DNA of 64,000 nucleotides from Candidatus Marinacidobacterales bacterium (GCA_965222425.1 CBDCTW010000005.1:122247-186246), one strand, 5' to 3'; numbered from the stretch's first letter, positions 3,833-54,320 are shown. Program-made: numbers and translations. The notes: generated by a model from the sequence alone, not told the origin.

Positions 3833-3867
3833 TAAGACAATTCAATGCGCAAGTATGCTGAGTCGCA

Positions 3868-7047: not shown

Positions 7048-7149
7048 GACCTCTTTAACTGTTGAGCCCCAATGCCTTCCGGGGATCTCCTCAACTTGTT
7101 AGCTTCTTCATACCGGAACGCTTAGCGGTTCCCTATCCTGGCGGTAGTT

Positions 7150-8808: not shown

Positions 8809-9103
8809 CTCGTGGAGGATTCAACTGAAGAAGCCCAGTCCAAGATCACTTCTGGTTGCCTCTCTGGCCGGTGTTCTCGCCGTGCCGTTGGCGATGGCAA
8901 CCTTCGGCGGCACTACCGCTGCCCATGAGATTGAGGAAGTCCTTTGTTACGGCGTGAACAAATGTAAGGCTACCGGCGACTGCGGTGGCAAGGGACACTC
9001 CTGCGCCAATCAAAATGGCTGCAAGCGTCAAGAGTACCTTGACATGGACAAGGAGCTCTGCCTGAAGATAGACGGTGGACGCCTGACTTCGGGAGCAGAG
9101 TAG
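8792..9103 (+). CDS. Secreted Cys-rich RiPP precursor, bufferin (BufA / DUF2282-like) type
   Basis: GGGAGG then ATG. Sec signal ...SLLVASLAGVLAVPLAMA, then a core with six Cys: LCYGVNKCKATGDCGGKGHSCANQNGCKRQEYLDMDKELCLKIDGG. It overlaps the DUF2063 stop. Confidence 0.65.
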   Translation: MVRPSNSWRIQLKKPSPRSLLVASLAGVLAVPLAMATFGGTTAAHEIEEVLCYGVNKCKATGDCGGKGHSCANQNGCKRQEYLDMDKELCLKIDGGRLTSGAE

Positions 9104-14796: not shown

Positions 14797-17700
14797 GTTC
14801 TGACCTCCTCCTTCGGGCTAGTTCCTTCCATCTTAGAGTAGGGAGAGAGCTCGAGCAAAACCTCCCGCACCCGGAGGAGAATGTCGTCGGGCCCGGTTCG
14901 AGTCAGCGGCAGCTTGAGGACTCCCCCCGGCGTCATCCGTGCGTTCGGAAGCTCCTCGGCGAGCTTGACCAGGCTCGTGGGGTCGACCGGAGACGCGGCG
15001 TCGAATCGAAAAGCCAGCAGATCGTCATCGCGTTCGATCGCCACCACCAGTAAACGCTCCGCCAAGAGTCTGAGGCGAGCGTACTCGAAGAGCCTTCCGA
15101 CCGAGTGCGGAATCGTGCCGTAGCGATCGCCCATCTCCGCCGCCAACCCTTCGATGGCTTCAGCGTCGCTGGCAGTGGAAACTCGCTTGTAGACCGACAT
15201 GCGTTGATTGATATCGGCAACAAACGACTCTGGGATCTTCAGATCGATCTTGAGATTCAAGGTGGATCGAGCGAGCTCTGCCTCTTCCCCGGACAGCTCC
15301 CGAATCGTCTGCTCCAAGAGCTTGCAGTAAAGATCGAATCCCACCGCATCGATGTGCCCGTGTTGTTCGCCGCCGAGTAAATTGCCCGCGCCCCGCAACT
15401 CGAGATCCAGCGCCGCGATGCGAAAGCCGGCGCCGAGGTCGCTGAACTCGCGGATCGCGGCGAGCCGGCGCCGGGCAATGGGGGTCATGGCGTTCTCATC
15501 GGGAACGAGGAAATAGGCATAGGCTCGCCGGTTAGAGCGGCCGACGCGTCCGCGGAGCTGATAGAGCTGGGAGAGGCCAAAGCTGTCGGCACGATGGACG
15601 ATCAGTGTATTAACGAGCGGTATGTCCAGACCGTTCTCGATTATGGTCGTGCTAACCAACACGTCGAACTCCTGTCGGATGAATCGAAGCATGGTCCGCT
15701 CGAGGTCCGACTCTTTCATCTGGCCGTGGCCGACTCCGATCCGGGCCTCGGGCACGAGCCGCTGCAGAAAAGATGCCATCGAATAAATGGAACTTACCCG
15801 ATTGTGAACGAAGTACACCTGACCACCTCGCCCCAGCTCATAGCGAAGGGCCTCGGCCAAGATCTTCGGGTTCAGGCGGGTGACGTAGGTCTGAATCGCC
15901 ATCCGATCCTTCGGCGGTGTCTCGATAACGGAAAGATCGCGAATGCCAGAAAGGGACATATGGAGCGTGCGCGGGATAGGGGTAGCGGTCATCGTCACGC
16001 AGTCTACTTCCTTGCGTAGCCTCTTCAATCGCTCTTTATGCCCTACGCCGAATCGCTGCTCTTCGTCCACCACGAGAAGGCCCAGGTCTTTGAACTGGAC
16101 GTCCTTGGAAAAGAGACGGTGTGTTCCGATGACCACGTCGACGGCACCGGCGGCGAGCTTCTTGACGATCGCTTTTTGCTCCTTCGGTGTGCGAAACCTA
16201 GAGAGCATCTCCACTCGAACCGGGAAAGCGATGAAACGGGACCGGAAGGTATGAAGATGTTGAAAAGCTAAGACGGTAGTGGGCACAAGAACCGCCACTT
16301 GTTTTCCATCCATCACCGTCTTGAACGCGGCACGCATCGCGACTTCCGTCTTCCCATAACCCACGTCGCCGCAGAGGAGTCGATCCATCGGGAAAGGCGC
16401 CTCCATGTCACGCTTGACATCTTCGATAGCCTGCGCTTGATCCACCGTCTCCTCATACTCGAATTGATCCTCGAGCTCGCGCTGCCAATGAGTATCGGGA
16501 GCGCAGGAGTGACCGGGCATGGACTTGCGCGCCGCGTACAACTTCAGGAGCTCCTGCGCCATGTCCCGCATCGATTTTTTCACCCGGCGCTTGACCCGTT
16601 CCCACCCCGTACCGCCCAGTTTGTCGATACGCGGCTTCTGGCTTTCGGCGCTCGAGTACTTCTCGAGCAGTTCGAGCTTCTCTACCGGAACGTAAAGCTT
16701 GTCCGCTCCCAAGTACTCGAGAAGGACGAACTCACTACTTCCCGACTGCTCCGCAATCTGACGCAGTCCGGCGAAAACACCGATCCCATGATCGGCGTGA
16801 ACGACGTAGTCGCCGACCTTCAAGTCCCGAAAGTCGGAAAGAAAGCGACCGAGCTTGCGCGACCGCCTCCGCTCCGGCCGTGGAGGCTCGTCGAAGACGT
16901 CTCTACCCGCAAACACCGCCTGCCCGAGCGAAGGAAGAAGGAATCCATGCGAGAGATTACCGATATGAAGCACAACCGTCCCGGGCGCTTGTGACTCTTC
17001 GGAAGCCATCGTGGCGGAGATCTTCGTTTCCTCAAGAATCTCCACCAGACGTTCTGCCAGCCCTCGGTTCGCGACGAAAACGTGAACGTGTCTTTGATTA
17101 TCGAGCTGTCGTCGGATCTCGGTGAGGAAATCCTTGATCCTTCCACGAAAGGAGGGAAGCAGTTGGCTCGGAAGGTGAAGCGAGTTAGCTGCGCCTGCGG
17201 TCTGATCCATGACATCCATCTCTTGGATGGTGACCGAACGGTTGCCGAGGTGAGCGAAAAGGTCCTCTGGAGTCAGGAGAAGCTCTGCCGGCCGTGGATA
17301 AGCTGTCTCGTCGGTGGCCGCGATTTCCCCGTAGCTCTCGAGGACGCGCTCCCATTCCGACGCCACCTGCCGGGAGATTTCTGCCGGCTCCTCGACCAGG
17401 AGCATGCCTTCCCGTAAATAGTCGAAAAGCGTCGCGCGATACTCTGCGAGGTGGGGAAGAACAAAAGAAGTTCCGGGGGGAAAGCTTTCTCGCTCGAGCC
17501 TGGCCTTCAATTCAAGGTCGCTTTCCCTCTCCTCGCTCAACCGATCCAAAAGACGCTGGCGCTCGCCTTCCGTGAAGATCCACTCTCGAGCCGGATAGAT
17601 CTCGGCCGATTCGAGCGAGACGGTCGTACGCTGGCTCTCTGGGTCAAAACTCCGGATTTCTTCCAGCGTGTCACCCACGAACTCGAGCCTCAGCGGCTCG

Positions 17701-22796: not shown

Positions 22797-24196
22797 GGTC
22801 AAGTCTTAATTTTCCTGTCAAATCTCCGTACGGTTCCCCGCGCTCGGTTAAGCTGCTGATTTCTCCGACGTGCCTTGCGGGAGAAGCTCGTTGCGAAGCT
22901 CCTCGACTTTCCTAGCGGCGAAGACATCCATCCTCACGCCGCGCCATTTGTTTGCGACGGCCAAGAGCACAGCGAACGAGAGTTTCGTCGCGGCCTCCTC
23001 GGTGAAGAAGTGAGGAATGACCTTTGTGCGACGTTTGTGCTCTCCGAACGTGCGCTCAAGTAGATTCGACGTGCGAAGCCTTTTGTGATGCGCCGCAGGA
23101 AGGCGTAGCGCCTGAAGACACGCTTCGAGGGTCTCTTCCATGCACTTCATCGCGCTCGGGAATCGTTGACGGTACCGAGTGATCACCTCCCGACCCTTCT
23201 TCAGCCCTTGCTCGTAGCTGTTCGCATGGAACGACTCAAGGATGGCCGCCTTGAGTTCGTCGCGCACTTCCTTCGGAGCCTTGCCCAGGATGTTCTCGAG
23301 GCGGTGCTTCTGGCAACGTTGCTTGAGGCTTCGAGGGAAGACCTCTGCGATCGCTTTGAGCACTCCAGGATTCCCGTCCGTCACGATGAGTAACGGCTCC
23401 CTCATTCCTCGGGCCACCATCTCCTGCAAGAACCCTTTCCAGTTCTCGTAGGATTCTCGGTTGCCGACACCGATATGAAGAAGAACTCGCGTCCCATCAG
23501 CGCGATAGCCGGTCGCAACGAGGATGGGCTCTTTCCTCTCCGCTCCTTGGTGGTAGCGCAGGTACGTGCCGTCGAGCTCGAGATACAACAGCTTCTCGTT
23601 CGAGAGATCCCGTTTTCGAAACGCCTCGAAATCCTCCGACAGACACCGTGTGACCCGGCTCACCACCGACTTCGAGACACCCGTGCCGCTCAGCACGTCC
23701 GCGAACGTCGCCTCAATGTCACGCGTCGACATCCCGTGGACGTACATCCGCGCGATCAGTTCATCGAGTTTCTCGGTCCGGCTCACGTAGGCGTCGAGAA
23801 TCTTTGACTGAAACACCTTCTCTGTTTCTCGTACCTGCGGCACTTGCACCGTTACCGCTCCCTCGCCCGTGAGGACCCGATGCGACTCATACCCGTTGCG
23901 TCGTCCCTTCTCCTTCGTCGTTGCCGGAGCGTTCTCATAGTAATTTCGACCCAACGCCTCCGTCACCTCGCGCTCCAACGCATATTGAAGCATCATCTGA
24001 GCTCCCGACCGGACGATCTCCGAGAGATTCATCTCCCCAAATACCAGTTGTTCCTCGAACTGCTTGAGCAATCGCTGACTCGGTAGTACCTTTCCCATGA
24101 TGTATGGTTCTCCTTTTCTGTCCCCATGACGGGGACGGGTTTGAGCTTGGGGAACCATACATCGTTTTTCTTTGACAGGAATCTTAAGACATCACC
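22797..24196 (-). mobile_element. IS256-family insertion sequence, 1400 bp
   Basis: Imperfect terminal inverted repeats: GGTCAAGTCTTAATTTTCCTGTCAAA (left) versus the reverse complement of the right end, GGTGATGTCTTAAGATTCCTGTCAAA. One transposase ORF. Flanked by the 9-bp direct repeat GAATCGTCG. Confidence 0.85.
22848..24158 (-). CDS. IS256-family (mutator-type) transposase
   Basis: 436-aa ORF, probably starting at MGKVLPSQ (24098, GGAGAA upstream). DDE-type body with ...LYLELDGTYLRY..., ...LIVTDGNPG..., ...CQKHRLENIL... typical of IS256/mutator transposases. Confidence 0.9.
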   Translation of the reverse strand: MVPQAQTRPRHGDRKGEPYIMGKVLPSQRLLKQFEEQLVFGEMNLSEIVRSGAQMMLQYALEREVTEALGRNYYENAPATTKEKGRRNGYESHRVLTGEGAVTVQVPQVRETEKVFQSKILDAYVSRTEKLDELIARMYVHGMSTRDIEATFADVLSGTGVSKSVVSRVTRCLSEDFEAFRKRDLSNEKLLYLELDGTYLRYHQGAERKEPILVATGYRADGTRVLLHIGVGNRESYENWKGFLQEMVARGMREPLLIVTDGNPGVLKAIAEVFPRSLKQRCQKHRLENILGKAPKEVRDELKAAILESFHANSYEQGLKKGREVITRYRQRFPSAMKCMEETLEACLQALRLPAAHHKRLRTSNLLERTFGEHKRRTKVIPHFFTEEAATKLSFAVLLAVANKWRGVRMDVFAARKVEELRNELLPQGTSEKSAA

Positions 24197-29726: not shown

Positions 29727-29741
29727 AAGGGGACGGGACTT

Positions 29742-30047
29742 CAGATCCTGACCGGCGCCAAAATATCGAGTGCCGCTACGTGTCTGGCGTCAAAATAGGA
29801 AGTTGCTACTGGAGACCGTCATTACACGCAGGTGCTACTCGAGCGCGGCAGGACGCCTTTCGGATCCTGTAGGACGCCAAAATACGGAGGTGCTTCTATC
29901 AACCTAGCCAGGCGTGCTCGCAGATCGTGACGGCCGCCTAAATATCCCACTGCCACCATCAACGTGGTGAGGCGGAATCGCCAGATCGTGATGGGCGTCA
30001 AAATATCGCGGTGCTAATAGCAGTCTAGCAAGACGCCGGTTGACACC
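29742..30047 (+). repeat. Tandem array (about 5 units of ~60 nt, one compressed) of the GGCGYC-AAAATA repeat family
   Basis: Core units start at 29754, 29786, 29872, 29932 and 29993 (spacing 32, 86, 60, 61). Unit consensus: CAGATCSTGA-N-GGCGYC-AAAATAYSG-N-GGTGCTWC-ATCAAC-CTAGCCA-GRCGYC. Confidence 0.65.
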
Positions 30048-30069
30048 TTCTCACGCTCAACGTTAGAAT
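30040..30069 (+). promoter_or_regulatory. Sigma-70-like promoter directly after the repeat array
   Basis: TTGACA (30040-30045), 18-nt spacer, TAGAAT (30064-30069). The -35 box overlaps the last repeat unit. The STAS gene starts about 50 nt downstream. Confidence 0.45.
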
Positions 30070-30120
30070 TTCTCGTCCCACATCACAACACCTGACGTGC
30101 GCTCGAGCGGGAGGCCTTTT

Positions 30121-30479
30121 TTGATCATTGGAAAACGCTCTCGCGGTAACTCAACCATCCTAGACATCGAGGGGGCTATCGGGTTGGGAGAAAGCGCCTA
30201 GTTTTTCTCGCAAACACTGGAGAACCTCCTGCGCAACGAAACGACGCACATCGTGATCGACTTCACTAACATCAACTACATCGATAGCACGGGAATCGGC
30301 GAGCTCATTGGATACCTCTCCAAGTTCGCAGGACAGGAGAGGACCGGCAAGTGATTCTGGTCAACCCTTCCGAGCGTATCTCTAGGCTCCTCAACGTCCT
30401 TCGACTGGACAAGGCTTTCAAGATATTCCCGGACGAAGACTCGGCAGTAGCCTACGCCGAAGCGCAAGGAACTTCCTGA
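30121..30479 (+). pseudogene. STAS-domain anti-sigma-factor antagonist (SpoIIAA-like), with amber codon and frameshift
   Basis: GGGAGG, 6 nt, TTG 30121: (M)IIGKRSRGNSTILDIEGAIGLGESA-TAG(30199-30201)-FFSQTLENLLRNETTHIVIDFTNINYIDSTGIGELIGYLSKFAGQERTGK. A 1-nt shift at about 30350 then gives VILVNPSERISRLLNVLRLDKAFKIFPDEDSAVAYAEAQGTS*. Confidence 0.7.
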
Positions 30480-30649
30480 GCGCGTCGTTTTTACCTTCGC
30501 TTCCCCCGCCTTTTAGGATGACAGGACGGGCAGCAAGAGGATCGCGCACATTGATTGGTCACGAAGTAGGGCTAGACCTCGGATCTACTTCGATCGGTCG
30601 GGGGCACTGCTATTGAGAGTGACGAGATCAGCGACACCGAGGTCACTTA

Positions 30650-31334
30650 GAATTCCGGGTCTACGCGGATTCGTGTGGGTAAGTCCTGACGGAAAACAGT
30701 GTAACTCATTGTGTGGGAAAGGTATCCAGACTTCATCAGGTGCTGAAAAGTGGTCCATTTTTCGGATAGGCTAACCGAGTGAAAAATTCCCAGTCGATCC
30801 GCTCGCTGTTTGCGCTGCCAGGTTTCGTGGCTGGTGCCGGATTGAAGGGTGTATTCGATGACCGATACGCCCACGTCATCCAGCTCAAGAGGCGAAAAAA
30901 ACAGCTGTTTGCTCTTACTGTGGGCAACGGTGCCGGGGACGCTATGACAAGCAAGTGTGCCGGGTCCGCGACCTGTCGTTGGCAGGCTGGCGGATCTCTC
31001 TGGAATACGAGCGTTGGCGCGTCAACTGTCCTGGGTGCGGCGGTTTGCATGTAGAACACCTGGACTGGCTGGCGAACAACTCGCGCTACACCTAGCGTTT
31101 TGCGACGCATGTGGGCAAGCTGTGCCGGGATATGCCGGACAAGGCGGTGGCCGAGATGGAACGTCTGCGCCTCCTAGTTGAAGGGGTCAACAACAAAATC
31201 CGTGTGCTGCAACGACGCGCCTACGGCTATCGCGACGAGGAATATCTCAAGCTGAAGATCGTGGCGGCATTCCTTCCGCCATTACCCAGAAATGCCGTCT
31301 TCAACCCACACGAATCCGCGTAGACCCAGAATTC
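30650..31334 (+). mobile_element. Internally deleted, inactivated ISL3-family element (685 bp, MITE-like)
   Basis: 31-bp terminal inverted repeats GAATTC(C/T)GGGTCTACGCGGATTCGTGTGGGT at 30650-30680 and 31304-31334. The transposase N-terminus (...AVCSYCGQRCRGRYDKQVCRVRDLSLAG...RVNCPGCGGLHVEHLDWL...RYT-TAG-RFATHVGKLC...) is joined directly to the extreme C-terminus (EGVNNKIRVLQRRAYGYRDEEYLKLKIV). A frameshift lies in an A7 run at about 30893. No target duplication was seen. Confidence 0.75.
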
Positions 31335-31669
31335 CTTTCGTCCGCCGCTGCACTCTCTCCATCGGTGGAAGGGAGAAATCCGCTTTTTTGATAGATCTTT
31401 CGATCGCGGGAGTCTACGTGAAGGCGGACACCCTGCCCTCGGAAGGTGATGAAGCCGTTCTCAAGTTGCGCGTTCCGGGCAACGATCGGCTCCTCGAGAT
31501 CCAGGCGGTCGTGATTTACGTCAACCAGGACCAAAAACATCCCGTCCACAGCCTTCCCCCGGGGGCGGGATTGCGGTTCCGGAGCCTTTCCGTGGAAGAT
31601 TCCAGGCTGATCGTGGGGACGATATACGCCTACTGCGTGTCAAATCCGGTCTACCGTCAGTACTTGTAG
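31292..31669 (+). CDS. PilZ-domain protein (c-di-GMP receptor type); first 14 codons lie inside the ISL3 remnant
   Basis: PRRPRIPFVRRCTL... (RxxxR-like) and DLSIAGVYV (D-x-S-x-x-G) motifs. 125 aa. The ATG at 31292 lies within the right inverted repeat of the IS remnant. Confidence 0.65.
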   Translation: MPSSTHTNPRRPRIPFVRRCTLSIGGREKSAFLIDLSIAGVYVKADTLPSEGDEAVLKLRVPGNDRLLEIQAVVIYVNQDQKHPVHSLPPGAGLRFRSLSVEDSRLIVGTIYAYCVSNPVYRQYL

Positions 31670-31706
31670 CCCGAGCCGAGCGAGTACTAACCAATTTCCC
31701 GGCTAA

Positions 31707-34913: not shown

Positions 34914-35969
34914 ATGTCCTCTATCTGGCCGGGAGTGATTGCGCGCTACAGGGATTGGCTCGAAATCTCCACTGAGGCGGAAACAGTAACCCTGCTCGAG
35001 GGGAACACTCCACTCATCCTCCTTCCCCGGCTCGCGTCCGAGCTGAGTGCGGAGGCGGTCTACCTGAAGTACGAGGGCCTCAATCCCACCGGCTCGTTCA
35101 AGGATCGGGGCATGACGGTGGCGATCACGGATGCCGTACACCGTGGCGCCCAAGCCGTCATCTGCGCCAGCACTGGAAACACTGCGGCGAGCGCGGCCGC
35201 CTACGCGGCGAGAGCGGGACTCCGCTGCTTCGTGGTCGTTCCCGAAGCCAACGTGGCGGCCGGTAAGCTGGCCGGCGCCCTGGCCCATCATGCCGAGATC
35301 GTGCGGCTGCAAGCGTCTTTCGACCAGGCGCTGGACCTGGTGCGGACCGCGGCGGAGCGATTACCGGTGGCCCTGGTCAATTCGCTCAATCCGTACCGCC
35401 TCGAAGGACAAAAAACTGTCGCCTTCGAGATCATCGAAGCCTTGGGGAGGGCACCCGATTGGCTGGCTCTTCCCGTCGGCAATGCCGGAAACATCACTGC
35501 CGCCTGGAAAGGCTTCCGCCAACACCACGATTTGTACGGCACCGACAAACCGAAGCTGCTGGGTGTTCAGGCGGCGGGGGCGGCACCTCTCGTTCTCGGC
35601 CATCCGGTGGACGACCCCTCGACGGTGGCGACAGCGATCCGAATCGGACGACCCGCTCGCGGAGAAGAGGCTCTCTCCGCAGCGAGCGAATCGGGAGGGC
35701 GCATCATTGCCGCTCCCGACGAAACGATCCTCGCCGCACAGGAACGACTCGCCTCGTTTGGAGTTTGGGTCGAACCGGCATCGGCGGCGGGAGTCGCCGG
35801 CCTAATTCAAGAAGCTTCCGCGGGACGCCTCGATGTCAGCGGCCAGACGATCGTCTGTATCGCGACTGGACACGGGCTCAAAGACCCCGGCATCGTCACC
35901 GACCGCTATCCCATGCCGCCTTCCATTCCCGCGGACTTCACTGCCCTCGAAAAGAAACTCGGTTCATGA
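34914..35969 (+). CDS. thrC: Threonine synthase
   Basis: PLP lysine motif GSFKDRGM, 351 aa. Translationally coupled (ATGA) to homoserine kinase. Confidence 0.9.
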   Translation: MSSIWPGVIARYRDWLEISTEAETVTLLEGNTPLILLPRLASELSAEAVYLKYEGLNPTGSFKDRGMTVAITDAVHRGAQAVICASTGNTAASAAAYAARAGLRCFVVVPEANVAAGKLAGALAHHAEIVRLQASFDQALDLVRTAAERLPVALVNSLNPYRLEGQKTVAFEIIEALGRAPDWLALPVGNAGNITAAWKGFRQHHDLYGTDKPKLLGVQAAGAAPLVLGHPVDDPSTVATAIRIGRPARGEEALSAASESGGRIIAAPDETILAAQERLASFGVWVEPASAAGVAGLIQEASAGRLDVSGQTIVCIATGHGLKDPGIVTDRYPMPPSIPADFTALEKKLGS

Positions 35970-36892
35970 AGCCGGTCATCGCTAGTGCTCCCGCGTCGAG
36001 CGCCAACTTAGGACCAGGATTCGATTGTCTGGGGCTCGCAGTGAATCTTTGCAACACCGTCAAAATGAGCCCGGCGAAGGCAGGAGTGCGCGTCGAGATC
36101 GAAGGAGAAGGTTCAGCGAGCCTGCCTCGAGGAGCCAGAAACTTGATGGTGCGGGCGGCTCGAAGGGTATTCGATCTCGTCGGCAAAGCCCCATCCGGAA
36201 TCAGCCTAAAAATAACCAATCAGATTCCTCTGGGGTCGGGTCTCGGATCGTCGGCCGCCGCGGTGGTAGCAGCGATGACGGCCGCCAACGCGATGACCGG
36301 GGGAAAACTGAAGCAGGAAGACCTATTGCAGTTGGCTTACAACATGGAGGGGCACCCGGACAATGCCGCCGCATCTCTTTTTGGTGGATTGAACCTGGTG
36401 AGCGTGGGTTCGGGAACCGCGATCGCTCGCCAAGTCCGGGTGGCGGACTTCAAGCTCGTTGTTGCCCTGCCGCTCGTCCAAATCTCGACCAAGGAAATGC
36501 GGCGAGCCTTGCCGCGTCGCGTTCCGCTGCGAGACGCCGTTTTCAACGTGGGTCGGGCTCTGTTCACGGTCGAGGCGCTAAGAACCGGTGACTATGAACT
36601 GCTGGAGCTAGCTATGGCCGATCGGCTGCACCAAAGTTATCGCTTGCGTTTTATCCCCGGGGGAGAAGCGGCGATGTCAGCGGCACGGAAGGCAGGCGCA
36701 GCGGCAGTTGCGCTATCCGGCTCGGGACCGGCCATTGTCGCCTTTGCACCCGACCGGCACGAGCGCATCGCGAGAGCCATGACGCGGACCTTCAAAGGAG
36801 CCGGGCTCGAGGTCAAGACGTTCATCCTCAACATCCATCGGCAGGGGACGCGCGTCCAACCGTCGAAGGAGAGCGCCAGCACCCGACCCTGA
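35966..36892 (+). CDS. thrB: Homoserine kinase
   Basis: SSANLGPGFDCLG and PLGSGLGSSAAA (GHMP kinase) motifs. The true start is ATG 35966. The long ORF-track N-terminal extension (35459..) is the +1 frame of thrC. Confidence 0.9.
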   Translation: MKPVIASAPASSANLGPGFDCLGLAVNLCNTVKMSPAKAGVRVEIEGEGSASLPRGARNLMVRAARRVFDLVGKAPSGISLKITNQIPLGSGLGSSAAAVVAAMTAANAMTGGKLKQEDLLQLAYNMEGHPDNAAASLFGGLNLVSVGSGTAIARQVRVADFKLVVALPLVQISTKEMRRALPRRVPLRDAVFNVGRALFTVEALRTGDYELLELAMADRLHQSYRLRFIPGGEAAMSAARKAGAAAVALSGSGPAIVAFAPDRHERIARAMTRTFKGAGLEVKTFILNIHRQGTRVQPSKESASTRP

Positions 36893-44842: not shown

Positions 44843-45001
44843 GATGGAGCGCCAGTCTAACGGCGGCTGGCCCGTTTGTTCAATTGGGCCGCCGTGTTGG
44901 CCACCAACAGTGAAGTGAAGCGCGCCTCAGAGGATCCGGACAATCTGGACAGGAAGTCCCTTTCCCCCTATGATCTTCTCTCATTCAAAACGGAGGTCTT
45001 C

Positions 45002-46036
45002 ATGGCCCAGGAAGACACTTTCAAAATCACCTACGCCACCCTCTCCGCCCCCAGCGAGGAAATGCACCTCGAGTACGACCGTGCCATCGAAAAGGTCAGA
45101 AAGGGCATGGGCAACACCCACGCCATGTGGATCGATGGAAGAGAGGTCTCGGGACGGGACACCTTCGACAACCAATCTCCTGCAGACACCGGTCTCGTGA
45201 TCGGTCGTTTTCAGGACGGAGCTCCCGAGGATGCGGCCGCCGCCGTGGACGCCGCCTTCTCTGGTTTCCCGTCTTGGAGCCACACCCCGTGGGACAAGAG
45301 GGTCGAGCTCATGTTGAAGGCGGCGGACATCATTAGTGGCCGGCGGTTCGAGCTGGCCGCGCTCATGAGCTACGAGGTCGGCAAGAATCGCTTCGAGGCG
45401 CTGGGAGACGTGGAAGAAGGCGCCGATCTCATACGCTACTACTGCAAACAGATAGAAGACGCGGACGGATTCGACCGGCCGATGGGCAAACTATCCCCCA
45501 ACGAAAAGACGAGAGATGTGCTTCGTCCCTATGGCGTATGGGTGGTGATATCTCCCTTCAACTTTCCTCCGGCCCTGCCGGCCGGAATGATGGCCGATGC
45601 CCTCATCGCGGGTAACACTGTGGTCTTCAAACCGGCACCCGACTCATCCTCGACTGCGGTGCGGCTCTACGAAGCTCTGCGGGAAGCCGGGCTACCTCTC
45701 GATCACCAGCTGTTTCGTGAAGAGCTTTTCGTCCCGCTACTTACCATCGGTGAGGTCGGCTCGCTCGGCGAAGCCTTCGAGCTCGCGAACCGTACGGAGT
45801 ACGGATTGACCGCCGGCATCTTCAGCGAGGATCGCGAGGAGATCGAGCTCTTCCTCGACCGCATCCAGGCTGGGGCCACCTTCGCGAACCGCAGGAGTGG
45901 CGCGACCACCGGCGCCTGGCCGGGCGTCAATCCCTTCTGCGGATGGAAGGCGAGCGGTGCGAGCGGTAAGGGCGTTTGCGGACCCTACTACGTCCAGCAG
46001 TTCCTGCGCGAGCAAAGCCAGACTGTGTTGGAGTGA
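45002..46036 (+). pseudogene. Aldehyde dehydrogenase (1-pyrroline-5-carboxylate dehydrogenase-like) with a large in-frame internal deletion
   Basis: GGAGG then ATG 45002. The N-terminal half, up to ...GNTVVFKPAPDSSSTAVRLYEALREAGLP, is joined at about 45700 directly to ...LFREELFVPLLTIGEVGSLGEAFELANRTEYGLTAGIFS...NPFCGWKASG. The segment that carries the catalytic Glu (E-x-GGK) and Cys (G-Q-x-C) motifs is absent. 344 aa versus an expected >500. Confidence 0.65.
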
Positions 46037-46040
46037 TGGT

Positions 46041-46778
46041 ATGGTTACCCCAAAAAAAGGCGCCACTCCGGTGAGGAGCTCGGGAATTCTGTTGGCGACG
46101 TACCTGGTCGGTAGCGTACTCGCTGCCGGACAGCAAGCCCCCCGTTCGTCCCGCGTCTTCAATCCCAAGAATGCCGAACGGCTCGAGGAGCCTTCACGGG
46201 ACGGATGGCAAAAACCGGCCGAGGTCGTGATGGCTTTGAAGCTCGAGTCCGGCGACGTCGTCGCGGACATCGGAACGGGCTCGGGCTACTTCGTTCCGTA
46301 CCTATCCAAAGCTGTCGGTCCCTCCGGGCGAGTCTTGGCGGTGGACATCCAGCCCGAGATGTTGGCCTTCGTCGAGCGTAAGGTCGGCAAGCTCGGCCTC
46401 ACCAACGTGATCACGGTGCTCTCTCAGGAAGCGGACACGCGCCTGGACCCAGAATCCGTGGACCTCGCGCTCATGGTCGATGTTTATCATGAGCTGGGCT
46501 CGCCGAGCTCGTTGCTCGCGAACATCCGTTCGGCACTCAAAATCGACGGGCGTTTCGCAATTGTCGATTTCAAGCGCGAAAAAGAGGCAGCGGAGATTGG
46601 GCCCCCGCTCAGCCACCGGGTTCCGCAGGAGCGCGTGATCTCGGAGCTGAAGCGTACCGGGTTCGAGCTCGTAGAGACGCTCACCAATCTTCCCTACCAA
46701 TACTTTCTCGTCTTCTCGCACACCAACGCCGCGCCCGCCTTGACGGGCAACGAATCAACGGGGAGCACGCGACAATGA
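46041..46778 (+). CDS. Class I SAM-dependent methyltransferase, exported or membrane-anchored
   Basis: VADIGTGSGYF (motif I), VLAVDIQPEM, ...LKIDGRFAIVDF. N-terminal hydrophobic segment ILLATYLVGSVLAAG. Confidence 0.8.
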   Translation: MVTPKKGATPVRSSGILLATYLVGSVLAAGQQAPRSSRVFNPKNAERLEEPSRDGWQKPAEVVMALKLESGDVVADIGTGSGYFVPYLSKAVGPSGRVLAVDIQPEMLAFVERKVGKLGLTNVITVLSQEADTRLDPESVDLALMVDVYHELGSPSSLLANIRSALKIDGRFAIVDFKREKEAAEIGPPLSHRVPQERVISELKRTGFELVETLTNLPYQYFLVFSHTNAAPALTGNESTGSTRQ

Positions 46779-47233: not shown

Positions 47234-47262
47234 TTGACATCTCGTAGAGCCCGGAGTACGCT
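47234..47262 (+). promoter_or_regulatory. Candidate sigma-70-like promoter of the riboswitch-controlled operon
   Basis: TTGACA (47234-47239), 17-nt spacer, TACGCT (47257-47262). The predicted start site falls at the first base pairs of riboswitch helix P1. Confidence 0.4.
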
Positions 47263-47267
47263 TCCCC

Positions 47268-47378
47268 GACTTATCCAGAGTGGCAGAGGGATCGGGCCCT
47301 TGGATGCCACAGCAACCGGCGTAGCACGGTGCTAAATCCCGCGGGTGGTCCCCGGTGGGTCGACCTGGCAGATAAGAC
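47268..47378 (+). promoter_or_regulatory. SAM-I (S-box) riboswitch aptamer
   Basis: CTTATCCAGAGTGGCAGAGGGATCGGGCCCTTGGATGCCACAGCAACCGGCGTAGCACGGTGCTAAATCCCGCGGG...GGCAGATAAG. This matches the S-box consensus blocks: P1 CUUAUC/GAUAAG, AGAG-GG-GAGGGA, GGCCC, GCAACC, GGUGCUAAAUCC. Confidence 0.85.
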
Positions 47379-47380
47379 CG

Positions 47381-47412
47381 GGCCCTTCGGCGCTGTTGGA
47401 AGGGCTTTTTTG
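47381..47412 (+). terminator. Intrinsic terminator (riboswitch expression platform)
   Basis: GCCCTTC-ggcgctgttg-GAAGGGC followed by TTTTTT (47406-47411), 4 nt after the aptamer. Confidence 0.7.
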
Positions 47413-47523
47413 TTCTCCCGGCCTAACTGACGGGCTAGAAGCCCCAAAACACGAGGGGTAGTCCATCAAAGGAGGGGGGTGGTTTCGCCTCAGCCCGGCG
47501 CGACCTCCGGTAAAAGGAATATT

Positions 47524-48780
47524 ATGAGTTACCTCAAGGGTTTGGAATGCAAAGAGTGTGGGGCCGCCTATCCCGCCGACCGTAGTTTCTTCTGTTCGGA
47601 GTGTCTCGGTCCACTGGAAGTGGTCTACGACTACGAACGGATCAGGGCCGATACCGGGCCGGAACGCATCGCGAGCCGAGAGCCGAACCTCTGGCGCTAC
47701 CGGGAGTTGCTTCCTGTAACGGGCGAGCCCATAACGGGTCATCACTCCGGCTACACTCCCTTAGTCCACGCCAAACGTCTCGGCGAGTATCTTGGCGCGC
47801 CCAACCTCTACTTGAAAGACGATACCGTGAACCACCCTTCCCTTTCTTACAAAGACCGCGTGGTCTCTATCGCCTTGACTCGAGGAGCCGAGCTCGGCTA
47901 CCAAGTTTTCGCCTGCGCCTCCACCGGCAATCTGGGAAACTCGCTTTCTGCCCACTGTGCTCGCACCGGTTTCCCCAGCCTCATCTTCATCCCCCAAGAT
48001 ATCGAACCGCCGAAGATCACCGGTTCGTTGATCTATAACCCGCGCATCGTCGCCCTCGAGGGAAATTACGACGACGTCAATCGCCTATGCTGCGAGATCG
48101 GGGACGAGTACGGTTGGGGCTTCGTCAATGTCAACCTGCGCCCTTATTACACGGAAGGTGCCAAGACGCTGGGTTTCGAGATCGTGGAGCAGCTGGGCTG
48201 GAGATTACCCGATCACATGGTTCTACCGACCGCGGGTGGCACGCTTCTCCCGAAGGTAGCGAAAGCGTTCTCCGAGACGTTACGGCTCGGATGGGCGACC
48301 GGCGATGTTCGAATCCACTGTGCGCAAGCGGAGGGATGTGCACCGATCGTCCACGCGCTTCATCGCGGCGACGATCTCGTCGATCCCGAAAAACCGAACA
48401 CCATCGCCAAGTCGATCGCCATTGGTAACCCCGCCGACGGCCCGTACGTACTCAAGGAAGTCCGGCGAACCGGGGGGTGGGGAGAGACCGCCACCGACGC
48501 GGAGATCCTGAGCGCTGTCCACTTGCTTGCCGAAAAGGAAGGGATCTTCACCGAGCCGGCGGGCGGCACTACGGTCGCGGTCACGTTGAAGCTCATTGAC
48601 CAAGGCCGTATCGACCCCAAAGATACGATCGTCGTCGGCATCACCGGCAATGGCTACAAGGCCTTGGATACGTTCTCCTCTCGGCTCCAACTCGAGACAG
48701 TGCTACGTCCTCGACTGAGTGTCTTCCGCGAGTGGTACGAACAACACCAGCCTGTCCACGCCGCCCGCCCCTCGACATGA
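47524..48780 (+). CDS. Threonine-synthase-family PLP enzyme with N-terminal Zn-ribbon (second paralogue; function possibly not threonine synthesis)
   Basis: MSYLKGLECKECGAAYPADRSFFCSECLGPLEVVYDY (4-Cys ribbon). PLP-Lys motif variant LSYKDRVVS. 419 aa. AAAGGA then ATG 47524. First gene after the SAM-I riboswitch. Confidence 0.8.
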   Translation: MSYLKGLECKECGAAYPADRSFFCSECLGPLEVVYDYERIRADTGPERIASREPNLWRYRELLPVTGEPITGHHSGYTPLVHAKRLGEYLGAPNLYLKDDTVNHPSLSYKDRVVSIALTRGAELGYQVFACASTGNLGNSLSAHCARTGFPSLIFIPQDIEPPKITGSLIYNPRIVALEGNYDDVNRLCCEIGDEYGWGFVNVNLRPYYTEGAKTLGFEIVEQLGWRLPDHMVLPTAGGTLLPKVAKAFSETLRLGWATGDVRIHCAQAEGCAPIVHALHRGDDLVDPEKPNTIAKSIAIGNPADGPYVLKEVRRTGGWGETATDAEILSAVHLLAEKEGIFTEPAGGTTVAVTLKLIDQGRIDPKDTIVVGITGNGYKALDTFSSRLQLETVLRPRLSVFREWYEQHQPVHAARPST

Positions 48781-50027
48781 TCGGTCGGCGTGCTCGCGTA
48801 AGGAAGTACGGTGGGACTTCCGTGGGGTCGCCGGAAAGAATCCGCAAAGTGGCCCAGGACCTAGTGGACGATCACCGTCGCGGAGTTCCTCAAGTGGTCG
48901 TGGCGTCCGCCATGGCCGATACCACCGAGCAACTCCTCAACATGGCGCGGCGTGTGACCAAGCAGCCTCAAGCCCGCGAGCTGGACATGATGTTGACGAC
49001 CGGTGAACAGATCTCCATTGCCTTGTTGGCGATGGCGGTTCAAGAGCATGGGGTGAAGGCGACGGCACTCACCGGTGCCCAGTGCGGAATTCGAACCGAC
49101 GGCAACTTCACGCGCGCCCGCATTCAGAAAATCTCCACCCAGAAGATCGTGGGCATCCTCGGGCAGGATAACATCGTCATCGTTGCCGGCTTTCAGGGAG
49201 TGACTTCCGACGACGAGATCACGACGCTCGGCCGAGGCGGTTCCGATCTCACCGCGACCGCCTTGGCGGCGGCCCTGGAAGCTCCGGTTTGCGAAATCTA
49301 CACCGACGTCGACGGCGTCTTTACCGCCGATCCCCGCATCGTCCCCGAGGCGCGACTTCTCCACTGGATAAGCTATGAAGAGATGCTCGAGTTTGCGGCG
49401 GCGGGCTCCAAGGTCCTTCACCCGCGCTCCGTCGAAGTGGCCAGCCGATTCAATGTTCCGCTTCAGGTGCGTTCCTGCTTTCACGATCGTCCCGGAACCA
49501 CCATCATCAAGGAGGACGAGTTGGAGAAAGTAGCGATAACCGGTTGTACTGGAGATTCCAACGTGGCGCGGCTCGCGTTGACCCGCGTGAAAGACGTACC
49601 AGGTATAGCGGCGAACATTTCGAGCACACTCTCTGACGTCGAGATCAACATCCAACTCATCATTCAGGGGATCCGGCACGACCAGACCAACGACGTCTCC
49701 CTCATCGTCTCCGAAGACGATGCTGAGAGATCGGCGGAAGCGCTCCGCGGGATCGCCGAGAGAGTTGGTTCGGCCGAGGTTCTGATAGACACCGAGGTCG
49801 CCAAAGTCTCCGTGATCGGGTCCGGGATCGCCAGCACGCCCGGCGTTGCGGCACGCATGTTTCGAGCCCTGGCCGACGAAGGGATCAACATCGAGCTCAT
49901 CAGTAGCTCCGAGGTCCGGATCGCCTGCGTGATCCACTGCGATCGACTTCCCGACGCGGTCCGCGCCATCCACCGCGAGTTCGATCTCGAGAACTTGGAG
50001 AGGAAACGCATTGGCGACAAGCAATAA
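48777..50027 (+). CDS. lysC: Aspartate kinase
   Basis: KYGGTSVGSPERI, ...GRGGSDLTATALAAAL..., two C-terminal ACT domains. ATG 48777 overlaps the upstream stop (ATGA). Confidence 0.9.
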   Translation: MIGRRARVRKYGGTSVGSPERIRKVAQDLVDDHRRGVPQVVVASAMADTTEQLLNMARRVTKQPQARELDMMLTTGEQISIALLAMAVQEHGVKATALTGAQCGIRTDGNFTRARIQKISTQKIVGILGQDNIVIVAGFQGVTSDDEITTLGRGGSDLTATALAAALEAPVCEIYTDVDGVFTADPRIVPEARLLHWISYEEMLEFAAAGSKVLHPRSVEVASRFNVPLQVRSCFHDRPGTTIIKEDELEKVAITGCTGDSNVARLALTRVKDVPGIAANISSTLSDVEINIQLIIQGIRHDQTNDVSLIVSEDDAERSAEALRGIAERVGSAEVLIDTEVAKVSVIGSGIASTPGVAARMFRALADEGINIELISSSEVRIACVIHCDRLPDAVRAIHREFDLENLERKRIGDKQ

Positions 50028-51324
50028 AGGCTCTCCCCCCCGCTCGCGAATTGCCCTCGCCGGCCTGGGCACGGTGGGACGCGCCGTCGTGCGCCAGCTG
50101 AGAGAAGATGGCGCACGCTTGCGCGAGACCAGCGGTTCGGAGCTCGAGCTCAGCCTGATTTTCGACCGCAGCCACCACGAGAAGGATCTCTCCACTTTGG
50201 CGCCCGGCGTCGAGGTGACCGACTCCATTGACGAGTTCCTGGCGAGCCCCGCCGACATCATCGTCGAGCTGATCGGAGGGACCGACCCTGCCGATCGGAT
50301 CATTCGAGAAGGTCTGCAGAAACAAAAGGCAGTAGTGACCGCCAACAAACAGTTAATGGCCGAATCGGGAGGCCAGTACCTTGAGCTGGCAGAAAAGAAA
50401 GAAGCCTACCTGGGGTTCGAAGCCTCGGTGGCGGGAGGAATCCCCATTCTTCGCTTGTTGCGACGCTCTCTCGTCGCGGATCGTATTCTCTCCATCCGAG
50501 GAATTCTGAACGGGACGTGCAATTTCATTCTATCGGAGATGGCGGAGACAAAGCGGGAATTCGGAGACGTCCTGGCTCAGGCTCAGGAGCTCGGCTACGC
50601 CGAGGCCGATCCCTCACTCGATATCTCCGGCCGGGATACCGCCGACAAACTGACGATCCTGGCCGCCCTCGCCTTCGGCCGATGGGCCAAGCCGGGCCAA
50701 GTGACCACCCAAGGTATCTCCGAAATCGATCCGGTCGACTTCCTTTACGCCAACCGACTCGGGACGACGATCCGCATGCTGGGCGTCGCGAGCCGCGGCG
50801 AGAAGAACCTCTCGATGTGGGTAAGCCCCTTCTTGATCGATGAACAGCTTAACTTGTCGAAGATCTCTGGGGTTATCAACGCGGTCGAAGTCACCGGAGC
50901 GCGGCTCGGTTCGGCCCTCTTCAGCGGGGAAGGAGCGGGGGGTAATCCGACGGCGGTATCCGTCGTGGCCGATCTCCTAAATGCCGCTCGGTGGCGGCAA
51001 GGAAAATCGGTCTTCTCTGCCCCGCAGGCCAACAACGGCGGGGACGCAGACGATTGCACACCGGTCGAAAGTTGGCCCTTCTACATAAGGTTCTTCATCC
51101 GCGACCAGCCGGAGATCATTGCCAAACTCGCAGAGATCCTGGCTCGCCATGAGATCAACATCGATTCGGTGCTACAGGAAAGCTGGCACGAGCGAGACAA
51201 CTTACCCTTCGTCATCTCCGTCGACCCGACTCCCCTTCCCGCGCTCGAAAAAGCGCTGAGTGAGATGAGATCCCTCGACTTCATCAACACTCCGCCGTTG
51301 GCTTTGCCCATTCTGCGGCGTTAA
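50011..51324 (+). CDS. hom: Homoserine dehydrogenase
   Basis: IALAGLGTVGRAV, ...ANKQLMAE..., ILNGTCNFILS, C-terminal ACT domain. 437 aa. Confidence 0.9.
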   Translation: MATSNKGSPPRSRIALAGLGTVGRAVVRQLREDGARLRETSGSELELSLIFDRSHHEKDLSTLAPGVEVTDSIDEFLASPADIIVELIGGTDPADRIIREGLQKQKAVVTANKQLMAESGGQYLELAEKKEAYLGFEASVAGGIPILRLLRRSLVADRILSIRGILNGTCNFILSEMAETKREFGDVLAQAQELGYAEADPSLDISGRDTADKLTILAALAFGRWAKPGQVTTQGISEIDPVDFLYANRLGTTIRMLGVASRGEKNLSMWVSPFLIDEQLNLSKISGVINAVEVTGARLGSALFSGEGAGGNPTAVSVVADLLNAARWRQGKSVFSAPQANNGGDADDCTPVESWPFYIRFFIRDQPEIIAKLAEILARHEINIDSVLQESWHERDNLPFVISVDPTPLPALEKALSEMRSLDFINTPPLALPILRR

Positions 51325-51716
51325 AATTTCGGGATGGCATAGGTGCCGCGGCCCACGGCGATCACTGCACCGCTCAAATCGCGAACTTCGACGTCGGCGA
51401 CACCGATGGTCCGACCCACCTTGACGGTGCGGCCGATGGCGACGAGATCCCCCTTACGGGCCGGGCGGAGATAATCGACGCGAAGATCGATGGTCGGGAC
51501 ATTGCCCTTGGCCTTGGTGGTGATCGCGTAATCGCCGGCGATGTCGATGAGGGCGCTGACAACGCCTCCGTGCAACCAATCGGAGCCGTCTTGTCTCAGA
51601 AATTCATCACGGAAGGGCAATCGAATTTCCACGAGGCCGTCCTCGCTACGAACCGTCTCTATCCCGAGAAACCGCTGGTAAGGAGAGTCGTCTATTCGGA
51701 TTTCGTTTTCATTCAT
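51321..51716 (-). CDS. PaaI-family (hotdog) thioesterase
   Basis: ...LHGGVVSALIDIAGD... and ...TIDLRVDYLRPA... motifs. 132 aa from the internal ATG 51716, which overlaps the upstream stop (ATGA). Confidence 0.8.
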   Translation of the reverse strand: MNENEIRIDDSPYQRFLGIETVRSEDGLVEIRLPFRDEFLRQDGSDWLHGGVVSALIDIAGDYAITTKAKGNVPTIDLRVDYLRPARKGDLVAIGRTVKVGRTIGVADVEVRDLSGAVIAVGRGTYAIPKF

Positions 51717-53254
51717 TCCAGACTGCTCACTCTCTCCTTCGCCATCACACGAAGGGCGGCGCGATCCAGTTTTCCGGTACCGCCTAGTGGGAGGCGCTCG
51801 AGAAAGAAAACGTGCCGCGGATGAGCGTAGGCCGCTCCGTTTTGGAGGAAGAACGCCTTGACGTCTTCTTCCGAAGTTTGTCCCGCGACCCGCGCCACGA
51901 CGAACGCCACCGGCACCGCTCCTTTCACCGCGTGTTGCACCGGGACAACACACGCGTCTCTTAGTTGAGGATGCTTCAGGAGCATGTCTTCGACCTCCTT
52001 CGGATAAACATTCTCGACGCCGACGTTGATCATGTCGTCTTTACGTCCCAGGAAATAGTAAAAGCCGTCCTCGTCTCGGCGCATCAGATCTCCGGTGAAG
52101 AGCCAGCCATCCCGGAATCTCTCGGCCGTTGCCTCCGGCCGCTTCCAGTAACCTTTGGCCAAGCCCGGGTTGCGTGTGACCAGCTCCCCAACTTCGTTAG
52201 GCCCCACTTCGGTCGACCCGTCTTCGGCCACTAGCTTCACATCGCATCCCGGAAAAGCCATCCCACAATTTCCTCGCTTTTTGAGTCCCCAACGCGAGTT
52301 CACGATCGGTACCGGCCCACCTCAGTTAGACCGTAGCTCTCCGCCATCGGCGCCCCAAAAACACGACCGAACTCTTCTAGAAGCTCTTCGGACACTTCGG
52401 CCGAGCCGAAACGGCGTAGCGGATGGAGCTCACGTCATGCTGAGCCAAGGCCTCTTTTTCCGCCAGGATCATTTTGTACATCGCTGGCACGCCGGTCAGG
52501 TAAGTCACTCGATGTCGCTCGATGGCCTTGATCACCTGCAGCGGATCGAAGCCGGCAAGATGACGAGTGAGCCGCCGGCGAGCAAGAAGGGCTTGACCAC
52601 TCCGATCGTCGCGTTCTTGTGATAGAGAGGAACGGAGATGAGGGCTCGCTCGCTGTGGTCGGCGTGAAATGCCTTGCGCAAGATGTCGGCATTCCAAATC
52701 TGGCCGCCGTGGGTGAAAAGGACACCCTTCGGCTTACCCGTCGAGCCGGACGTGTAGGGCTGCATGCAGATCTCGTCGGGGTCGGTACGTCGACGCTCGA
52801 GGCGGTCGGGCTGCGATTCGAGAAAATGGTCATAGGACAGGAATCCATCGCCTGCCGGAGCATCAATGATGATGTGCTTCAAGCTCGGAGCGTCCTTCGC
52901 GAGTAGCCGAGCGCGGTCCGCCATATCTCGATTGGCAATGAGAACCGACGCCTTCGAGTCGTGGAGAACATAGCTCAAGGCTTCATCGCTCATGCGAGTG
53001 TTGAGCGGCACGGGGACCGCCCCGAAGCGCATGGGTCCGAAAGTGGATTCCAGGAAGCGGTAATCGTTGCTGAACATCAGCGCCACTCGCTCGCCCTCGC
53101 CCACGCCGATCTCGCGAAGGGCGTTGGCCATGCGATTACATCGAGCTTCGAGGTCTTGGAATGAGAGGACAATGTCGTCCTGGAAGACGGTGTGCTCGTC
53201 GGGGGTGAGCCGTAACGGGGCGTCGGAGATGTGTCCCAGATTATCCGGGAGCAT
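51713..53254 (-). pseudogene. AMP-dependent acyl-CoA synthetase with at least three frameshifts
   Basis: All expected blocks are present but in four frame segments. Segment 1: MLPDN...YTSGSTGKPKGVLFTHGG...LLAGGSLVILP. Segment 2: FDPLQVIKAIERHRVTYLTGVPAMYKMIL...IRYAVS. Segment 3: SAEVSEELLEEFGRVFGAPMAESYGLTEVG. Segment 4: PVPIVNSRWG...FTGDLMRRDEDGFYYFLGRKDDMINVGVENVYPKEVE...GKLDR. Shifts lie at about 52550, 52400 and 52310. Confidence 0.75.
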
Positions 53255-54320
53255 CTCCACTCTCCGGTTGGATGACAACTTTTCCGAAGACCTCGCGTTT
53301 CTCGAGAGCGATCTCTCCTTCGGCGGTGCGCTCCAGGGGCAACGCCCGATCCACAACCGGGCGGAGCTTGCCTTCGAACGCCAAGGCGACGACTTCTTCG
53401 AGCTCCTCATGAGTCCAACCGTTACTGCCCAGTAGTTTCTGCTCGCGGCGGAATAGATAACGGATGTCGGTAGGGCCGATCGGACCGGAGGTGGCACCAC
53501 AGGTCACCAGACGCCCTCCTTTGCCGAGCGCCCGAATACTGCGTTCCCAAGTGACAGCACCGACCGACTCGATCACAACCTCCACGCCACGTTTGCCGGT
53601 GAGTCGCCGGACAGTCTTGTCCCATTCCTCATTCTCGACATAATTAACGACGTCGTCAGCCCCGAACTCCCTCGCACGAGCCAACTTTTCCTCGGTGGAC
53701 GCGGTGGCGATGACCCGAGCGTTCAGGAGCTTCGCGATTTGTATCGCGGCCACCGCGACGCCACCTCCGGCGCCAAGCACTAACACCACTTCCCCAGGCT
53801 TCACTCGCCCATGGGTCACCACCATACGCCAGGCGGTCCCGTAGGTAACCGGCAAGCACGCGGCGTCGTCGAACGAATAACCCCCCGAAATCGGAATCGC
53901 TTGGTTGGCGGGGCAAGTCACATACTCCGCGAGTCCCCCGGGATCGAGCTCACCCAACATATGTGGCCGCAGGCACCGAGGTGTCTGACCCTCGAGGCAG
54001 TACTCGCACGTGCCGCATCCCCAGGTGGGATTCAGAAGCACGCGATCCCCCACCGCGGGTCGCCTGACCCCTTCTCCGACTGAGTCGACCACACCGGCAA
54101 TATCACCACCGGTAATGTGAGGCAGGGGTGTCGGCTCACCGGGCATCCCTTCGCGAACGAAGATGTCCAGAAAGTTTAGAGCACACGCCTTGATCTTGAC
54201 CCGGATCTCACCCAGCCCGGCCTTCGGTCGCGGCCACGCGGCCTCGAGCTTGAGCACCTCCGGGCCGCCGTGCTCATGGATCACGACCGCCCTCATGGTG
54301 TCGACTTCGGATACAGGCAT
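53241..54320 (-). CDS. Zinc-binding alcohol dehydrogenase / MDR-family oxidoreductase
   Basis: ...GCGTCEYCLEGQTPRC (structural Zn lobe), VLVLGAGGGVAVAAIQIA (Rossmann). Probable start MRAVVIHEHGG at about 54296. Confidence 0.85.
   Translation of the reverse strand: MPVSEVDTMRAVVIHEHGGPEVLKLEAAWPRPKAGLGEIRVKIKACALNFLDIFVREGMPGEPTPLPHITGGDIAGVVDSVGEGVRRPAVGDRVLLNPTWGCGTCEYCLEGQTPRCLRPHMLGELDPGGLAEYVTCPANQAIPISGGYSFDDAACLPVTYGTAWRMVVTHGRVKPGEVVLVLGAGGGVAVAAIQIAKLLNARVIATASTEEKLARAREFGADDVVNYVENEEWDKTVRRLTGKRGVEVVIESVGAVTWERSIRALGKGGRLVTCGATSGPIGPTDIRYLFRREQKLLGSNGWTHEELEEVVALAFEGKLRPVVDRALPLERTAEGEIALEKREVFGKVVIQPESGDAPG

Follow-up and report, generated by a model that had tools for sequence, protein, structure and literature searches.

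SAM-I riboswitch, three-gene operon and thrC paralogues

We analysed a stretch of 64,000 nucleotides from Candidatus Marinacidobacterales bacterium (GCA_965222425.1, CBDCTW010000005.1:122247-186246), hereafter the window, in which an S-adenosylmethionine (SAM)-I riboswitch precedes three overlapping plus-strand genes: a gene related to threonine synthase (ThrC), lysC and hom (47234-51324 with the leader). The first gene (47524-48780), here called metM-like, encodes a 418-aa pyridoxal 5'-phosphate (PLP)-dependent enzyme of the ThrC fold (PALP domain, 230 bits), with an N-terminal zinc ribbon of four cysteines (Cys9, Cys12, Cys24 and Cys27; CKEC...CSEC) and the PLP motif LSYKDR, and its ATG is preceded, 5 nt upstream, by AAGGA. 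Its best homologues are 81-83% identical and are named Vicinamibacteria or Acidobacteriota, names by which the host is placed in the Acidobacteriota. Its TGA overlaps, as ATGA, the ATG of lysC (48777-50027), which encodes a monofunctional aspartate kinase of 416 aa with two ACT domains (NF005155, 522 bits; TIGR00656, 405 bits; AA_kinase and ACT domains). A 17-nt overlap then leads into hom (50011-51324), a homoserine dehydrogenase with a C-terminal ACT domain, 437 aa long if read from a TTG start (NF004976, 418 bits; NAD_binding_3, Homoserine_dh and ACT domains), beyond which the next gene is convergent. A first-pass annotation of this sequence had described three coupled genes headed by a 419-aa ThrC-like protein; the genes and their overlaps stand, and the length is corrected to 418 aa, the stop codon having been counted.

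The leader contains a full-length match to the SAM-I (S-box) family RF00162 at 47268-47378 on the plus strand (covering all 108 model positions; 71.5 bits, gathering threshold 44.4, E = 9.4e-15; cmscan, Rfam), which is the sole Rfam match in the window and scores 95.2 bits with our custom model R1. Directly downstream, sequence and folding indicate an intrinsic terminator on the same strand (47380-47411), with a GC-rich hairpin of 7 bp (arms GCCCTTC at 47382-47388 and GAAGGGC at 47399-47405) followed by TTTTTT at 47406-47411; the isolated hairpin folds at -14.3 kcal/mol. Both the aptamer and the hairpin with its six T had been proposed in the first-pass annotation and are borne out by these results. 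A consensus promoter and terminator scan of the window did not report the riboswitch terminator, because its loop exceeds the scanner's maximum of 8 nt. An equivalent hairpin with a GCCCTT stem and a T-run follows the aptamer in four of the related loci presented below (L001, L002, L087 and L085), and a less clean one is found in L084. About 110 nt separate the terminator from the ATG at 47524, and the z-score for folding of the whole leader is unremarkable (0.54). Judging by aptamer and hairpin, the element would respond to SAM binding with SAM-dependent termination. The TTGACA hexamer at 47234-47239 on the plus strand, proposed at first reading as a -35 element, fared less well and is a weak candidate only: the -10 candidate paired with it, TACGCT, agrees with the consensus at 3 of 6 positions, and the proposed promoter is absent from the output of the consensus promoter scan.

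A separate thrC-thrB pair, already recognised in the first-pass annotation, lies 11 kb upstream of the riboswitch operon on the plus strand and consists of a canonical thrC of 351 aa (34914-35969; TIGR00260, 269 bits) and of thrB, encoding homoserine kinase (35966-36892; TIGR00191, 261 bits). When compared with solved ThrCs from M. tuberculosis, Aquifex, Bacillus and Thermus (2d1f, 2zsj, 6cgq and 1uim), the 351-aa protein scores 384 bits to 2d1f and 359-375 bits to the other three, whereas the 418-aa protein reaches only 155-179 bits. Because of this difference, the 351-aa protein is identified by its sequence as the conventional threonine synthase, and the riboswitch-controlled gene as a divergent paralogue. 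The first-pass annotation had considered that the 418-aa protein might instead be the one to cluster with characterised threonine synthases; the opposite was found, as it is the 351-aa gene that matches them.

Membership in the MetM family

In Streptomyces albulus, Hasebe et al. (2024, Appl Environ Microbiol 90:e01247-24; cited in PMC12172450 and bioRxiv 10.1101/2024.10.14.618325) described a methionine route through a ThrC homologue, MetM, together with the carrier MetO, and its mention in the first-pass annotation agrees with what these two citing papers relate. As summarised there, the ThrC homologue MetM, "often misannotated as such", converts O-phosphohomoserine to homocysteine with the thiocarboxylate of MetO, with MoeZ acting as sulfur ligase and Mec as maturation hydrolase (GapMind 2026, bioRxiv 10.1101/2024.10.14.618325); a SAM riboswitch is reported upstream of S. 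albulus metM (PMC12172450).

A search of 1.84 billion representatives returned a Micromonosporaceae protein 50% identical to the 418-aa protein, which seeded a scan of GTDB genomes yielding 80 actinobacterial loci, including 10 Streptomyces species. A SAM-I aptamer lies directly upstream of the gene in 78 of the 80, and a MetO-like gene immediately downstream in 42; Micromonosporaceae and several other groups keep the riboswitch and have no adjacent MetO (about 38 of 80 loci are without it). The locus of S. griseoincarnatus (L072) displays a SAM-I aptamer, a 429-aa ThrC-like gene and an 89-aa ThiS/SAMP1-like gene ending in GG, in the same order as the published metM-metO architecture. Its ThrC-like protein shares 50.2% identity with the 418-aa protein (404 aa, 377 bits, blastp), as against 34.6% and 115 bits for the 351-aa ThrC. 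Control in L072 is probably translational, because the aptamer, which ends about 23 nt before the start codon and overlaps a GGAG-rich stretch, abuts the ribosome-binding region. The two arrangements suggest an expression platform that differs between phyla, with a terminator in the window and the ribosome-binding region in Streptomyces.

ThrC of T. thermophilus, whose numbering is used here, served as the reference for an alignment of 158 family members taken from the loci with six canonical ThrCs. The alignment defined a MetM-family signature, which is our own and not taken from the literature: the replacements G64V, T88L, N157R, R160Y, G187A and A240S are present in 158 of 158 family members, Streptomyces included, and S155, N188 and R242 are also replaced family-wide, by variable residues. 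The six canonical enzymes retain the ThrC residues, with one exception at R242. At each of these positions the window protein shows the residue type of the MetM family (V113, L137, R206, Y209, A237 and S297 at the six fixed ones, in its own numbering), and residues S108, K110, D111 and R112, as well as the four cysteines of its ribbon, are invariant in the family alignment. At the threonine-synthase residues T88, S155, R160 and N188 it has L, V, Y and G. These four positions presumably form the phosphate site that governs ThrC reaction specificity in the T. thermophilus structures; if so, the substitutions would fit a change of chemistry in which beta-addition of water gave way to gamma-replacement by sulfur.

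Closer relatives were collected by a metagenome scan, which gave 80 loci with proteins 50-72% identical to the 418-aa protein, their neighbours being classed by tblastn. A ThiS-like gene lies inside the fetched locus in 54 of the 80, mostly directly downstream of the metM-like gene, and such loci often also carry ThiF, a small NIL-domain protein and a CysM-like PLP enzyme, and sometimes ATP sulfurylase. In L085-L098 (59-64% identity), the order is SAM riboswitch-thiF-metM-thiS-cysM-NIL. A longer version, in which one SAM-I riboswitch is followed by thiF-metM-thiS-cysM-like-NIL-(thiF-like)-radical SAM-sulfate symporter-ATP sulfurylase, was observed in L085 (9103-17339, from a metagenome-assembled genome labelled 'Deltaproteobacteria'), L086 and L088-L098. 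Because a single ThiS sits between the MetM-like and the CysM-like enzymes, loci of the L085 type suggest one carrier for both homocysteine and cysteine synthesis. Where the metM-like gene accompanies hom and thrB, ThiS-ThiF is found downstream in L104 and L107, a riboswitch in L102, L114, L117 and L122, and neither in the others. Operons of the form hom-thrB-X or thrC-thrB-X were also noted in L099-L112, L120 and L123, mostly lacking riboswitch and ThiS, with proteins 56-60% identical to the window protein that bear the full L88/R157/Y160 signature.

In a neighbour-joining tree of 247 sequences, the zinc-ribbon ThrC-like proteins split from the canonical ThrCs with a bootstrap of 100, one divergent ThrC-like sequence (L100_ThrC) branches nearest to the zinc-ribbon group, and the window protein falls inside an acidobacterial clade (bootstrap 100). 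A denser tree of 129 sequences resolves a window clade of 72 sequences (bootstrap 99) and a sister clade of 40, joined to it with a bootstrap of 99. The sister clade includes Acidobacteriota-named proteins and P0067, whose locus (L170) reads riboswitch-metM-thiS, and ThiS matches occur on equal-sized contigs for at least 15 of its members. In these sequence trees, the window protein is nested among ThiS-linked and riboswitch-linked relatives.

Nine loci of the window clade were examined: the window, L001, L002/L003, L084, L087, L167, L168 and L169. In all nine, a SAM-I aptamer lies directly upstream of the metM-like gene. What follows the gene varies: the window and L001 have metM-lysC-hom, L084 and L168 have metM-lysC and a nearby hom on the opposite strand, and L002/L003, L087, L167 and L169 have riboswitch-metM with neither lysC nor hom downstream. 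Because these last loci keep the riboswitch, it is tied to the ThrC-like gene itself and not to lysC or hom, which argues against a passenger role. Sequence identity, signature residues, phylogeny and the conserved riboswitch-gene association together place the 418-aa protein in the MetM family.

Proposed SAM-repressed methionine branch and competing explanations

From this family membership, the 418-aa protein is predicted to be an O-phosphohomoserine-dependent homocysteine synthase, and we infer O-phosphohomoserine as its substrate and homocysteine as its product. The whole operon would then be a SAM-repressed methionine branch in which a homocysteine synthase of the MetM family is expressed together with LysC and Hom, a reading to which we give a probability of about 0.75. 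At high SAM, the aptamer would fold and the downstream GC hairpin with its six T would stop transcription; at low SAM, read-through would express the metM-like gene, lysC and hom. The MetM-like enzyme would swap the phosphate of O-phosphohomoserine made by ThrB for sulfur, giving homocysteine, and LysC and Hom would drive flux from aspartate towards homoserine whenever methionine and SAM run low. The homoserine kinase at 35966-36892 would be the source of O-phosphohomoserine for both ThrC and the MetM-like enzyme. The idea of a methionine-dedicated ThrC paralogue acting on the ThrB product had been put forward in the first-pass annotation, and gains support from the paralogue scores, the 50% identity to Streptomyces, the signature and the clade-wide riboswitch. 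Its observation that no metA/metX, metY or metB is visible in the window agrees with Pfam scans of about 55 window open reading frames (ORFs), among which no homoserine acyltransferase, Cys/Met-metabolism PLP enzyme, methionine synthase or sulfur-carrier gene turned up.

Several points weigh against this interpretation. Folding of the leader gave no convincing anti-terminator pairing. The 418-aa protein passes TIGR00260 (thrC) with 261 bits against a cut-off of 167; the model is non-discriminating, because the Streptomyces MetM-like protein also passes it with 271 bits. The canonical side of the signature comparison is small, with only six ThrCs, the deep neighbour-joining branches are weakly supported, and the Streptomyces orthologues were picked by locus architecture, not via the S. 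albulus MetM sequence. Four loci (L105, L106, L111 and L112) have hom-thrB-X operons with no riboswitch or ThiS, an arrangement resembling a threonine operon. For a homologue from Microcystis, which shares 51.6% identity with MetM and has a metO-like gene beside it, both threonine synthase and threonine deaminase activities were reported in vitro, and methionine did not increase (PMC12172450); because of these results function may not be uniform across the MetM family. Finally, neither MetO/ThiS nor ThiF was found in the window by tblastn or by a profile hidden Markov model built from 110 sequences, which recovered the positive controls L085 and L170 (E 1e-38 to 1e-47), so that the MetO-like partner anticipated in the first-pass annotation is not in these 64 kb; ThiS and ThiF are likewise lacking within 10 kb of the gene in the eight same-clade relatives (L001, L002/L003, L084, L087 and L167-L169). 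Pfam scans and the carrier searches also found no MoeZ/ThiF-type activator and no Mec-type hydrolase within the window.

The sulfur donor is most likely a protein thiocarboxylate of the ThiS/CysO type encoded elsewhere in the genome, with free sulfide as the alternative. The most economical assumption is that such a carrier lies elsewhere in the genome, as must be so in Micromonospora too. An enzyme of the same family could nonetheless be carrier-independent, that is, an O-phosphohomoserine sulfhydrylase using free sulfide after loss of the dedicated carrier in the clade. We consider this quite unlikely: within 10 kb, all nine loci of the 72-sequence clade lack ThiS and ThiF whereas the sister clade has a carrier gene, and lysC occupies the downstream carrier position in four of them, but a carrier-free neighbourhood of 20-64 kb is not a carrier-free genome, and the roughly 38 of 80 actinobacterial loci that also lack an adjacent MetO, those of Micromonosporaceae among them, keep the riboswitch. 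A broader scenario can be put forward tentatively, as one that is rather unlikely: the 72-sequence acidobacterial clade dispensed with a dedicated MetO and draws on sulfide or on a carrier that also serves cysteine synthesis, the vacated position went to lysC, either alone or together with hom, and SAM gates the whole entry into the aspartate pathway.

That the 418-aa protein is instead a second genuine threonine synthase, the riboswitch serving lysC and hom for methionine supply, appears very improbable. Its passing of TIGR00260, the presence of some relatives in hom-thrB-X operons and the ThrC activity of the Microcystis homologue in vitro (PMC12172450) would all fit. Against these stand the loci in which the riboswitch controls the ThrC-like gene alone (L002/L003, L087, L167 and L169), the canonical thrC-thrB already in the window, and the linkage of relatives to ThiS, to ThiF and to genes of sulfate assimilation; nor would there be any metabolic logic in repressing threonine synthesis by SAM. 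The replacement of T88, S155, R160 and N188, which we take to be phosphate-site residues, points the same way.

Scarcely any credit is given to an O-phosphohomoserine-dependent analogue of cystathionine gamma-synthase (with cysteine as donor and a beta-lyase needed), or to another SAM-related product: plants do join O-phosphohomoserine to the cysteine thiol by cystathionine gamma-synthase, gamma-replacement with a small thiol is chemically similar, and no carrier gene lies nearby, but the protein has no homology to the fold type of that enzyme, Pfam scans found no cystathionine beta-lyase in the window, and the closest relatives are ThiS-linked.

No NCBIfam model is specific to MetM, and the ThrC models of that collection fail to separate the two functions. 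With NF006050/PRK08197, named 'threonine synthase', the 418-aa protein scores 291.4 bits, under the cut-off of 303; a riboswitch-controlled relative of the acidobacterial clade (P0068) scores 313, the Streptomyces MetM-like protein 255 and P0125 259. This model probably labels MetM-family proteins as threonine synthase, and it appears to cover part of the family under that name. Cysteate synthase was tried as another identity for the 418-aa protein and rejected (TIGR03844, 67 bits against a cut-off of 325). A sequence search of the PDB returned no MetM structure.

The window system resembles MetM/MetO of S. albulus, as the latter is outlined in the citing papers, in its ThrC-homologous PLP enzyme with an N-terminal Cys4 ribbon, in the SAM-I riboswitch directly upstream and in the presence of thrB in the genome, and it shares about 50% identity and common signature residues with the Streptomyces orthologues. 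Unlike that system, the window has no adjacent metO and no ThiF/MoeZ or Mec, and the gene forms an operon with lysC and hom; unlike Streptomyces L072, its platform is an intrinsic terminator about 110 nt before the start codon, and its phylum is Acidobacteriota. With canonical ThrCs (T. thermophilus 1UIM, M. tuberculosis 2D1F), the protein has in common the fold, the PLP-lysine motif and the presumed substrate, at about 35% identity, and differs from them by a zinc ribbon of about 55 residues added at the N-terminus, by substitution of T88, S155, N157, R160 and N188, and by SAM-riboswitch control.

Sulfur transfer from a protein thiocarboxylate is also cited for HcyS-MetY of Wolinella succinogenes (Krishnamoorthy and Begley, 2011, cited in PMC5764234). 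As in that system and in CysO-CysM of M. tuberculosis, relatives of the window protein cluster with a CysO/SAMP1-like ThiS, a ThiF-type activator and often a CysM-like enzyme, which by analogy points to the same thiocarboxylate logic; unlike in those systems, the acceptor is of another fold and substrate (ThrC-like, O-phosphohomoserine), and the window holds no carrier. In Bacillota, some S-box regulons include hom or aspartate-pathway genes, such as hom1 under tandem SAM riboswitches (PMC12452182). A terminator-type SAM riboswitch controls homoserine dehydrogenase in both cases, whereas in the window lysC and the MetM-like gene are co-transcribed with it and the host is acidobacterial.

The route itself was published in 2024 and is in GapMind; what is new here is a member with no linked MetO, in an operon with lysC and hom and with a terminator platform. 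With it, methionine synthesis by MetM would extend into Acidobacteriota. Members of what appears to be a large family spread over several phyla are almost always named "threonine synthase" in public sources, and the Cys4 ribbon, L88/R157/Y160, an upstream SAM-I riboswitch and ThiS/ThiF/NIL/CysM neighbours may serve as markers for re-annotation. Pathway predictors that miss MetM would miscall such soil bacteria as methionine auxotrophs. The carrier-less, lysC-linked clade offers a natural test of the need for a protein thiocarboxylate in MetM chemistry.

Other features of the window and related loci

A cluster at 7062-9103 starts with a plus-strand gene (7062-7988) for an MNIO-family enzyme modifying ribosomally synthesized and post-translationally modified peptides (RiPPs; PF05114, MbnB/TglH/ChrH, 304 bits), followed by a DUF2063 protein (7783-8808, plus strand) and an ORF of 103 aa without a Pfam match, whose N-terminus resembles a signal peptide and whose core is rich in Cys (CYGVNKCKATGDCGGKGHSCANQNGC). 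We take this arrangement of MNIO, DUF2063 and small ORF to resemble RiPP clusters of the bufferin or methanobactin type.

On the minus strand, the region 51713-53500 holds two ORFs that are parts of one AMP-binding (acyl-CoA ligase-like) gene, 52532-53500 covering positions 8-240 of the AMP-binding Pfam model and 51713-52303 covering positions 338-384 together with AMP-binding_C. Because the middle is missing from both frames, the gene is, on its sequence, a frameshifted pseudogene or an assembly error. The aldehyde dehydrogenase ORF at 44876-46036 (plus strand, 386 aa) may similarly carry an internal deletion or frameshift; its two Pfam stretches skip part of the 461-position model, and its 3' end overlaps the start of a methyltransferase ORF (45897-46778).

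A Mutator-family transposase lies at 22848-24158 on the minus strand (258 bits), and a stretch of about 2 kb at 29727-31700 consists of short ORFs resembling transposase fragments. In L001, the homologous operon likewise has Mutator-family transposase genes a few kb away (2956-4185 and 13938-15080). The acidobacterial locus L084 carries an Acido-Lenti-1 small RNA (13119-13164; RF01687, 59 bits) immediately downstream of a carD-like gene, with no counterpart match in the window.

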